DNA from: Escherichia coli
Lineage (GTDB): Bacteria; Pseudomonadota; Gammaproteobacteria; Enterobacterales; Enterobacteriaceae
Reading direction: 5' to 3' (one strand)
DNA length: 21,251 nucleotides
NCBI RefSeq assembly: GCF_003334255.1
Contig: NZ_QOWU01000069.1
Part shown: one piece after another, positions 19,499 to 21,251 of the stretch
Layout: each line of letters opens with the position of its first letter
Numbering within the stretch: position 1 is the stretch's first letter
Position numbers and translations under genes: made by a program
The notes under the pieces: model-generated
What the model saw: the letters and a program-made list of their open reading frames with translations, nothing else
The model's database searches: none
Told to the model about the DNA's origin: nothing

Positions 19499-19536
19499 GG
19501 GGTCCGCTTGGAAAACGGAAAATATCCCACGCTAAG
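19499..19536. repeat. Tn3-family 38-bp terminal inverted repeat (Tn21-subgroup-like)
   Basis: GGGGTCCGCTTGGAAAACGGAAAATATCCCACGCTAAG; compare the Tn21 IR GGGG…CAGAAAACGGAAAATAAAGCACGCTAAG (recalled from memory). The stop codon of the minus-strand tnpA (CTA at 19532-19534) lies inside the IR, as in Tn3-family elements. Confidence 0.7.
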
Positions 19537-20847
19537 ACTGTTTTTTGTACGATTCGATATCGACATTGCGTAATGGTCGGTACTTCCCTGTACCCAGCTT
19601 AAGATTATTACGCCAGACATCATCCCCATTAAGATTGATATGCTCCCAGCCCAACGGCGAAAGGTGAGAGAGCAGTTGGTCATTAATCGGGAGCTTTTTT
19701 CGTTTCAGGGATTCAATGGCTCTTTCTATGTATACCGTGTTCCATAACGCGATTGCCGCTGTCAGTAACGTCAGACCACTGGCCCGGTAACTCTGATTCT
19801 CCAGCCCCCTGTCCCTGATTTCACCCAGCCGGTGCATAAAAACCGCTCGCGCAAGAGCATTACGGGCTTCTCCTTTATTCAGCCCAGCTTGTACACGTCG
19901 TCGCAAACCAGGATCTCGAAACCAGTCCAGCATAAACAGTGTCCGTTCAATTCGACCAATTTCTCTCAGCGCTTTGGCCAGTCCATTCTGTTTTGGGTAA
20001 CTGGCTAACTTTTTCATCATCAGCGATGCAGTGACTGTCCCCTGTTTAATCGAAGCTGCCAAGCGTAATACCTCACCCCAGTACGTTTCAATATCTTTGA
20101 GATTCAGGCTGGTTGTTGATATGACGGACTGAAGCCCAGGATATCGCTCAGCCTTTCCGTGAATAAACAGTCGCTTATCATGAAGATCCCTGATCCTCGG
20201 CGCAAAAGCGAATCCCAGCAAATGCATTAGTGCAAAAACATGCTCTGTGAAACCTGCGGTATCGGTGTAATGTTCGGTAATTTCCAGATCACTTTCATGA
20301 TACAACAGGCCATCAAGTACGTGGGTTGAGTCACGTACCCGACTAATCACTTTGGTGTAGAACGGGCTATATTGATCTGATATATGCGTATAAATCTGTA
20401 CGCCCGGCTCCTGGCCATATTTAAGATTGACCTGACCAGCATAACGCCCGTGACTGCCCACCCGAAAGTTCTGCCCGTCTGATGACGATGTTGTCCCGTC
20501 GCCCCAGAATGCTGCTAATGGACGTTTCCCCTGCGCGTTTACCAGTTCTGCAAGGGCGGCTGAATAGGTTTCGTCATGGATGTACCATGCCTGGATACCT
20601 TCGAGGGACGATTTTGTTACCCCGGGGCAGGACTCTGCCATTTTTGTCAGCCCCAGATTAATACCGTCAGCCAGAATTGTGGTCAGCAACAGCCTTCCGT
20701 CTTTTGGCCTGATGTTATTATTTTTGAGATGCGTGAAGTGACGTGTAAAACCAGTCCAACTGTCAACTTCTTCCAGTATTTCTGTAATTTTCGGATGGGG
20801 GAGCATGTTATAAACCAGACTGGCAAAGGCAGAAACACCGGAAGGAA
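19532..20847 (-). pseudogene. tnpA: Tn3-family transposase TnpA, C-terminal ~440 codons (N-terminal half missing)
   Basis: Minus-strand ORF with Tn3 TnpA-like motifs ([53 protein letters not shown]). Homology is interrupted at about 20848 by the IS3-family insertion; the first ~16 codons of the listed ORF (to 20896) derive from the IS end. Confidence 0.8.
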
Positions 20848-21251
20848 TGAGGTAGCCTGAGTTTAACGGACACTCCTTCCTGAAATAGAATGGCATCAGA
20901 ATGAGCTAATAATGAGCAGAAAAACCCAACGTTACTCTAAAGAGTTCAAAGCCGAAGCTGTCAGAACGGTTCTTGAAAATCAACTTTCGATCAGTGAAGG
21001 CGCTTCCCGATTATCTCTTCCTGAAGGCACTTTAGGACAATGGGTTACCGCCGCCAGAAAAGGGCTCGGTACTCCTGGTTCCCGCACGGTGGCTGAACTG
21101 GAATCTGAAATTCTGCAACTGCGTAAGGCGTTAAATGAAGCTCGCCTTGAGCGAGATATATTAAAAAAAGCAACTGTAGATTCAATTGGTCAACGCAACA
21201 GTTATGTGAAAACATGGGGTTGCGGAGGTTTTTTGAATGAGACGAACATTT
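20848..21251 (+). mobile_element. IS3-family insertion sequence, left end (partial; continues beyond the window)
   Basis: Terminus TGAGGTAGCCTGAGTTTAACGGACAC at 20848 fits the IS3-family pattern (TGA…GGACAC); orfA follows 64 bp downstream; A7G slippery motif at 21164-21170. Confidence 0.75.
20912..21251 (+). CDS. IS3-family transposase OrfA (HTH protein), 3' end not resolved in the window
   Basis: MSRKTQRYSKEFKAEAVRTVLENQLSISEGASRLSLPEGTLGQWV… is an HTH OrfA typical of IS3-family elements, with a leucine-zipper-like LESEILQLRKALNEARLERDILKKA before the AAAAAAAG frameshift window. Not in the supplied ORF track. Confidence 0.75.
   Translation, partial: MSRKTQRYSKEFKAEAVRTVLENQLSISEGASRLSLPEGTLGQWVTAARKGLGTPGSRTVAELESEILQLRKALNEARLERDILKKATVDSIGQRNSYVKTWGCGGFLNETNI

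Follow-up and report, generated by a model that had tools for sequence, protein, structure and literature searches.

A nested stack of IS30, IS600 and a Tn3-family transposon on an IncK2/Z plasmid of Escherichia coli

Related elements and the anatomy of the locus

In Tn21, as carried by R100/NR1, tnpR (16168-16728, +) and tnpA (16731-19697, +) are co-directional and abut, and the element bears a mer operon and integron cargo. Tn3 and gamma-delta (Tn1000) have tnpA and tnpR divergent around a short intergenic region, and in Tn3-type elements res sits in the spacer between the two genes. Some small cryptic Tn3-family transposons, Tn5403 among them, have tnpA and tnpR as their sole genes and are found on ColE1-like and large enterobacterial plasmids. 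ColE1 cointegration through Tn3-family elements has been documented, and Tn5403 is reported to have joined ColE1 and IncN replicons (PMC8683028). Among the smaller insertion sequences, IS30 is known to target hot spots and to make 2-bp target duplications (PMC9333248).

We analysed a 21,251-bp stretch of E. coli DNA (the window), which is 100% identical over its whole length to positions 9909-31159 of NZ_CP060058.1, the 99.8-kb IncK2/Z plasmid unnamed1 of E. coli G8; a twin plasmid in strain G6/7 is likewise 100% identical to the window. The sequence past the window end was read from an extract of the G8 plasmid (L001; window coordinate = L001 coordinate + 15091), and the copies used for comparison came from pNIID27_2 (L004) and from a 7.7-kb ColE1-like plasmid of E. 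marmotae (L003). We have little doubt that positions 19499-21251 are the left 1.75 kb of a 5.8-kb nested mobile-element stack on this IncK2/Z plasmid. The nesting has three levels, with IS30 lying in IS600 and IS600 in the tnpA gene of a Tn3-family transposon. The features of the window are as follows (slashes mark the ends of elements).

17560-17895, + strand: C-terminal fragment of a serine recombinase, matching positions 91-144 of the Pfam Resolvase model; a PGAP pseudogene, 'missing N-terminus'
19484-19498, + strand: target site of the transposon, the left arm and loop (AAAAGGGCC-GTTACT) of the intrinsic terminator hairpin after an acyltransferase gene
19499-19536, no strand: 38-bp terminal inverted repeat (IR), GGGGTCCGCTTGGAAAACGGAAAATATCCCACGCTAAG, of the form GGGG...ACGCTAAG, which holds the tnpA stop codon
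19532-20847, - strand: 3' part of tnpA, a pseudogene, with its TAG at 19532-19534, codons 558-994 and 2 nt of codon 557
20845-20847, no strand: left copy of the IS600 target duplication, GAA (GAA/TGAGG...CCTCA/GAA), corresponding to the overlap at L004 7347-7349
20848-21174, + strand: first 327 bp of IS600 (IS3 family), with the left end TGAGGTAGCC at 20848, the left IR, and orfA codons 1-87 from the ATG at 20912
21163-21170, + strand: A7G programmed -1 frameshift motif, AAAAAAAG, at which a -1 slip gives OrfAB
21173-21174, no strand: left copy of the IS30 target duplication, AC (gcaAC/TGTAGA...TCTACA/ACagcg; uninterrupted IS600 reads GCAACAGCG)
21175-21251, + strand: first 77 bp of IS30 (TGTAGATTCAATTGG...), with the left IR and the transposase start codon (ATG, 21237); the element runs on past the end of the window

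The IR begins with GGGG, ends with TAAG and is about 38 bp long, as is usual in the Tn3 family. It is identical to the Tn21 IR at 31 of the 38 positions; the sequence of the latter was confirmed exactly at the tnpA end of Tn21 in R100. A search of the window that allowed up to 8 mismatches returned no second copy, and the perfect inverted partner lies 5.7 kb rightward in the G8 plasmid (L001 10170-10207). Because of this partner, and because IR pairs bound 3,815-bp units elsewhere, a chance match is excluded. A literature search for papers on the IR string, or on pSFO157 with Tn3, found none.

The coding part of the tnpA piece (19535-20847) spans the whole DDE_Tnp_Tn3 catalytic domain and has 99.3% nucleotide identity to an intact copy. 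The 437-aa fragment that it encodes reaches 631 bits with the NCBIfam model transpos_Tn3, whose cutoff is 500, and PGAP labels it 'Tn3 family transposase, missing N-terminus'. The program-made list of open reading frames starts this frame at an ATG at 20896, which is an artefact that lies inside IS600. A first-pass annotation made from the letters of the window had described a 38-bp Tn21-like IR holding the tnpA stop and about 440 C-terminal codons of a minus-strand Tn3-family transposase. Each of these points held, and the complete codons number 437.

The locus is an ordinary nested-insertion mosaic of known element types that had been annotated in RefSeq beforehand, and its significance beyond correct annotation is small. 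We regard its anatomy, its junctions, its target duplications and the order in which IS600 preceded both IS30 and a 504-bp deletion as demonstrated.

The 3,815-bp transposon and its relatives

IR pairs identical to that of the G8 plasmid bound exactly 3,815 bp in pNIID27_2 and in the E. marmotae plasmid, and these intact copies lie between direct 5-bp target duplications (ATAAA and CTGAT, respectively), as expected of the Tn3 family. The genes of the intact unit are tnpA on the minus strand, for a transposase of 994 aa, and, across a 160-bp spacer, the divergent tnpR (+), for a recombinase of 196 aa. TnpA carries the Pfam domains DUF4158 (aa 6-169) and DDE_Tnp_Tn3 (aa 579-966, E=6e-148) and aligns end to end with the solved structures of Tn4430 TnpA; it is a large DDE transposase of about 1,000 aa with a Tn3-type catalytic domain. 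TnpR matches the Pfam models Resolvase and HTH_7 and shows a YCRVS catalytic-serine motif near its N-terminus. Its relatives include the serine recombinase Gin and the resolvases of gamma-delta and Tn3 (the latter two with E of about 1e-25 to solved structures). The stack descends from a 3,815-bp cryptic transposon made up of tnpA, the 160-bp spacer and tnpR.

An identical TnpA is recorded on 613 contigs; clustering at 90% brings together 1,929 members, which come from several genera of enterobacteria. Cluster names are generic throughout ('Tn3 family transposase', 'recombinase family protein'), and neither these nor the PGAP names attach a named Tn3-like element, a Tn number or an IS number to the transposase. 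In a tblastn survey, the nearest named TnpA families were ISPa38, TnAs3 and TnAs1, at about 56%.

Tn21 resembles this element in its IR, which shares GGGGTC...AAAACGGAAAAT...CACGCTAAG, in the position of the tnpA stop within the IR, and in its TnpA, which is 56% identical over the full length. The present element differs in that tnpA and tnpR are divergent across the 160-bp spacer, TnpR is only 34% identical to that of Tn21, and the 3.8 kb of the element include neither a mer operon nor an integron. By IR and TnpA similarity the element thus falls with the Tn21 subgroup, but the co-directional res-tnpR-tnpA order of that subgroup is absent. Tn3 and gamma-delta match it in gene arrangement, since their tnpA and tnpR likewise diverge from a short intergenic region; a related small serine resolvase and the AT-rich 5-bp duplications of the intact copies are further points of likeness. 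However, the nearest named TnpA relatives are of the Tn21 clade, and the element carries no bla or other cargo. Its IR is presumably less like the Tn3 IR than like the Tn21 IR. These comparisons indicate that the element pairs a Tn21-clade transposition module with a different, Tn3-style resolvase arrangement. The likeness to Tn5403 lies in its two genes and in the plasmids on which it is found.

A second, intact Tn3-family tnpA on the G8 plasmid was considered as part of the same element and rejected, having 21% identity and different ends.

IS600, IS30 and the 504-bp deletion

Alignment of the G8 stack with the intact copy in pNIID27_2 gave three blocks: L001 4408-5756 matches L004 6001-7349, L001 8244-9679 matches L004 7347-8782, and L001 9679-10214 matches L004 9287-9822. 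IS600 lies directly behind tnpA codon 557, which places it 22 codons ahead of the DDE domain; past its right end lie tnpA codons 80-557, a truncated tnpR and the second perfect IR. Relative to both L004 and the copy in ED1a, the G8 copy lacks 504 bp (L004 8783-9286), which take in the first 78 codons of tnpA and part of the 79th, the entire 160-bp spacer and the first 36 codons of tnpR, among them the one for the catalytic serine. In RefSeq, PGAP carries the pieces as pseudogenes; the exception is the remaining 160 codons of tnpR, just beyond the window, which it treats as an intact 'recombinase family protein' but which are a catalytically dead remnant.

When IS30 and one copy of AC are removed, IS600 is 1,264 bp long and differs from the uninterrupted ED1a copy by 1 mismatch; it encodes an OrfA of 100 aa and, via the -1 slip at A7G, an OrfAB of 385 aa. 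At 1,157 nt, the CDS of the ED1a copy is not divisible by 3, consistent with an annotated frameshift. Its length of about 1.26 kb, imperfect TG...CA IRs, frameshift-joined reading frames and 3-bp duplication are those of IS600, and the name given by PGAP ('IS3-like element IS600 family transposase') and a match to NCBIfam transpos_IS3 agree. What sets the G8 copy apart is its splitting by IS30. Located 5 bp beyond the slippery site, IS30 prevents OrfAB from being made. IS30 itself is complete in the G8 plasmid (L001 6084-7304), with 1,221 bp and a 383-aa transposase that scores 276 bits against NCBIfam transpos_IS30 and is named 'IS30-like element IS30 family transposase' by PGAP. In its length, its family DDE transposase, its 2-bp duplication and its hot-spot targeting, nothing notable differs from the known element (the part past the window was read from the identical G8 record). 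The stack contains a transposon that is dead three times over and a dead IS600, with IS30 alone keeping both ends and an intact transposase frame.

ED1a pECOED and three further plasmids have the same left flank, transposon/IS600 junction and right flank, without IS30 and without the 504-bp deletion; the ED1a copy has a 4-bp deletion of its own in the IR. Because these ED1a-type plasmids lack both later changes, we conclude that the transposon and then IS600 were inserted first, and that IS30 and the deletion belong to the G8 and G6/7 lineage only. Events very probably began with the 3,815-bp transposon, which entered the hairpin loop of the terminator that follows the acyltransferase gene. 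IS600 then inserted behind tnpA codon 557 with duplication of GAA. Later, in the G8 lineage, IS30 probably inserted into IS600, 5 bp downstream of A7G, duplicating AC and parting orfA from orfB; the loss of tnpA codons 1-79, the spacer and tnpR codons 1-36 is also a late event of this lineage.

Within the window there is no tnpA beyond 20847, and the first-pass annotation had accordingly taken the gene to be truncated, with about 440 C-terminal codons left before an IS3-family end at 20848. On this reading, the IS3-family element is the edge of a deletion and the pieces come from unrelated elements. The recombinase fragment near 17.6 kb, which had been placed on the opposite side and convergent with tnpA, does have that orientation (17560-17895, +, against tnpA on the minus strand). 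It is truly unrelated as well: at 34% identity to TnpR we rejected it as the cognate tnpR, which lies on the far side of the stack and divergent from tnpA, and its DNA is nearly unique to the G8 plasmid. The annotation was therefore right that more than one element contributed, and right to see a nested-insertion mosaic on a plasmid. It had also correctly noted orfA and the A7G motif, which are those of IS600, but IS30 from 21175 onwards had gone unnoticed. Extension into the G8 plasmid, which reached both the right end of IS600 and the rest of tnpA, refutes truncation by the IS3-family element. Since codons 80-557 resume directly after IS600 with the GAA duplication, 99.8% identical to and collinear with intact copies, tnpA is interrupted at 20847/20848 and not truncated there. 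Rejoined, codons 80-994 can be read through as 915 aa, with 5 substitutions and 0 internal stops, and we consider the truncation reading highly improbable. The origin of IS30 is a closer matter. Of 5,426 complete E. coli genomes, 1,284 contain the identical IS600::IS30 junction, with IS30 at the same position, in the same orientation and with the AC duplication. The junction occurs at different loci with their own duplications in Nissle 1917 (AAC) and 2011C-3911 (GAC), and also on a sheep plasmid. In chromosomal matches, 8 bp of further similarity upstream of IS600 proved, once the junctions were read, to be due to chance or to extension of the alignment. The plasmid IS600 might thus have gained IS30 by homologous recombination or gene conversion with this common chromosomal arrangement, or the composite might have moved as a unit, and the IS30 of the G8 plasmid is identical in sequence to that of another record carrying it (L014). 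Movement as a unit is excluded at this site by the ED1a-type plasmids, which have the same IS600 insertion without IS30. Against gene conversion, the G8 IS600 has ED1a-specific SNPs on either side of IS30, at positions 55 and 596, and IS30 is a known hot-spot inserter that makes 2-bp duplications (PMC9333248). REL606, moreover, has IS30 at the homologous spot of a different IS3-family orfA (AAAAAAAGCCGT/IS30), which argues for a hot spot. In view of the REL606 case, the hot-spot targeting and the ED1a-type SNPs on both sides, we favour a probable independent insertion of IS30 over acquisition from a chromosomal copy, which seems unlikely.

With roughly one complete E. coli genome in four carrying the junction, shared junctions of one insertion sequence within another are unreliable as markers of common descent for the surrounding DNA. 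A wider reading, which we offer tentatively, is that the 3,815-bp element may be an unnamed and still active cryptic transposon, widespread in Enterobacterales, with a Tn21-type transposition module and a non-Tn21 divergent resolvase; separately, a dedicated IS30 hot spot might lie just 3' of the IS3-family frameshift motif and recurrently disable IS600- and IS911-type elements.

Hybrid flanks of the transposon

The G8 transposon has no matching 5-bp duplication: it directly follows TTACT (19494-19498) on the left and is followed by ATAAA on the right. On the left, 518 bp of IncK2/Z backbone are 100% identical to the IncK2/Z plasmid CP088437, where the empty site reads AAAAGGGCCGTTACT/GGCCCTTTTT, that is, AAAAGGGCC-GTTACT-GGCCCTTTTT. 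From the sequence of this empty site, the transposon can be placed in the hairpin loop of the acyltransferase terminator. The right flank consists of 488 bp of a ColE1/ColK-like plasmid, which start exactly at the IR with ATAAA and end in GTATA, exactly at another Tn3-type IR. Since this fragment is only 488 bp long and ends at another such IR, further events must have taken place. On reading of the junctions, two suggestive short likenesses of the flanks, ATAAACA in pNIID27_2 and a 'CTCATAAA'-like string in F-type plasmids, were put down to chance or to extension of the alignment.

A replicative-transposition cointegrate is expected to leave a transposon copy between a new target flank and a donor flank; the same pattern would also result from recombination between two copies or from deletion within one molecule. 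The TTACT/ATAAA pattern suggests that the mismatched flanks may be the remnant of a cointegrate, or of recombination between copies, involving a transposon-bearing ColE1-like plasmid and an IncK2/Z plasmid. A chimeric query of PLSDB for the predicted donor junction, in which the ColE1-like sequence runs through ATAAA into the IR (GGCAAATCTCATAAA/GGGGTCCGCTTGG), returned no spanning record, and the cointegrate origin of the flanks is therefore an inference. The flanks could instead have arisen by intramolecular replicative transposition with an adjacent deletion, or by one-ended transposition, which we consider possible but doubtful. After an intramolecular deletion, too, a single copy would be expected to have one old flank and one new one, and the G8 plasmid indeed lacks the remaining half of the target hairpin; between this route and an intermolecular one, the present data do not distinguish. 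One-ended transposition is unsupported for the ColE1-like segment, whose far end shows GTATA beside another IR rather than a repeat of TTACT. The preferred cointegrate or inter-copy recombination resembles the replicon fusion mediated by Tn5403. If it is correct, the locus would be a worked example of a small cryptic transposon whose hybrid flanks record the fusion of a ColE1-like with an IncK2/Z plasmid.

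Tn3-type ends in and beyond the window

Additional ends of Tn3 type were found in the window and further along its source record, the G8 plasmid NZ_CP060058.1 (L001 denotes a stretch of this record):

Window 14637-14675: perfect inverted copy of a 39-bp end (GGGGTTCTACGCCGGAACCGCCGAAATTTCCGTTACCCC)
Window 18745-18782: second Tn3-family-type 38-bp inverted repeat (IR; GGGGTCAGTTTGGATATGGGAAAATTTTGTACGTTAAG), oriented like the one at 19499
L001 10695-10954 (record 35694-35953), to the right of the window: 260-bp element with imperfect 38-bp Tn3-type IRs (GGGGTTTGAAGCCC...ACGCTAAG)

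The partner of this 39-bp copy lies upstream of the window, adjoining another Tn3-family tnpA, whose 1,015-aa product is 21% identical to that of the dead transposon, the inactivated 3,815-bp element with its IR at window 19499-19536. GATAT flanks both 39-bp ends. The paired ends, with GATAT at each, thus place window 1-14675 inside a 22.6-kb Tn3-family transposon (record 2002-24583), which carries the ACP/ketosynthase/ABC-transporter cluster.

At the 18745 IR, the match to intact exonuclease genes of many plasmids ends exactly at window 18744, and the IR plus ~200 bp is shared by a varied set of plasmids from Klebsiella, Citrobacter and Raoultella. Since the source plasmid holds inverted copies of this IR region (record 37007-37244 and 46165-46439), we delimited an 8.6-kb IR-bounded segment that contains the dead transposon together with the acyltransferase gene; this segment has no target duplication. 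A yacC-like 3'-5' exonuclease pseudogene (18586-18744) adjoins the IR and is truncated by it.

The 260-bp element is similar to TIMEs, a class of miniature elements derived from Tn3 that are about 262 bp long (PMC4133298), and it likewise has no target duplication. It forms the boundary where the 488-bp ColE1-like fragment flanking the dead transposon on the right stops.

Resolvase sequences and an IR lesion

PGAP annotates an intact CDS for a 160-aa 'recombinase family protein' at L001 9679-10161 (record 34678-35160). This is the cognate tnpR of the dead transposon in N-terminally shortened form: a 504-bp deletion has removed its first 36 codons, catalytic serine included. A sister lineage has an inactivating lesion of its own, independent of this one: in the transposon copy of ED1a pECOED, we observed a 4-bp deletion in the tnpA-proximal IR, from AAAACGGAAAATATCCC to AAAACGGAATCCC (L002, the pECOED record, at about 6200-6235).

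The other resolvase fragment, at 17.6 kb, lies in DNA nearly restricted to the G8 and G6/7 plasmids (window 17300-17953). From ~17953, just upstream of yacA, common IncI/K/B-type backbone homology starts again.

IS30 beside the IS3-family frameshift motif

At several unrelated loci, IS600 copies carry IS30 at the identical spot, 5 bp past the A7G frameshift motif (window 21163-21175; compared records L012, L013, L014 and L015). A different IS3-family element in REL606 likewise has IS30 at the homologous spot. This recurrence in unrelated IS600 loci and in another IS3-family element suggests a hot spot for IS30 in the frameshift region of IS3-family elements. Among the 5,426 complete E. coli genomes, 1,284 have this same IS600::IS30 junction.
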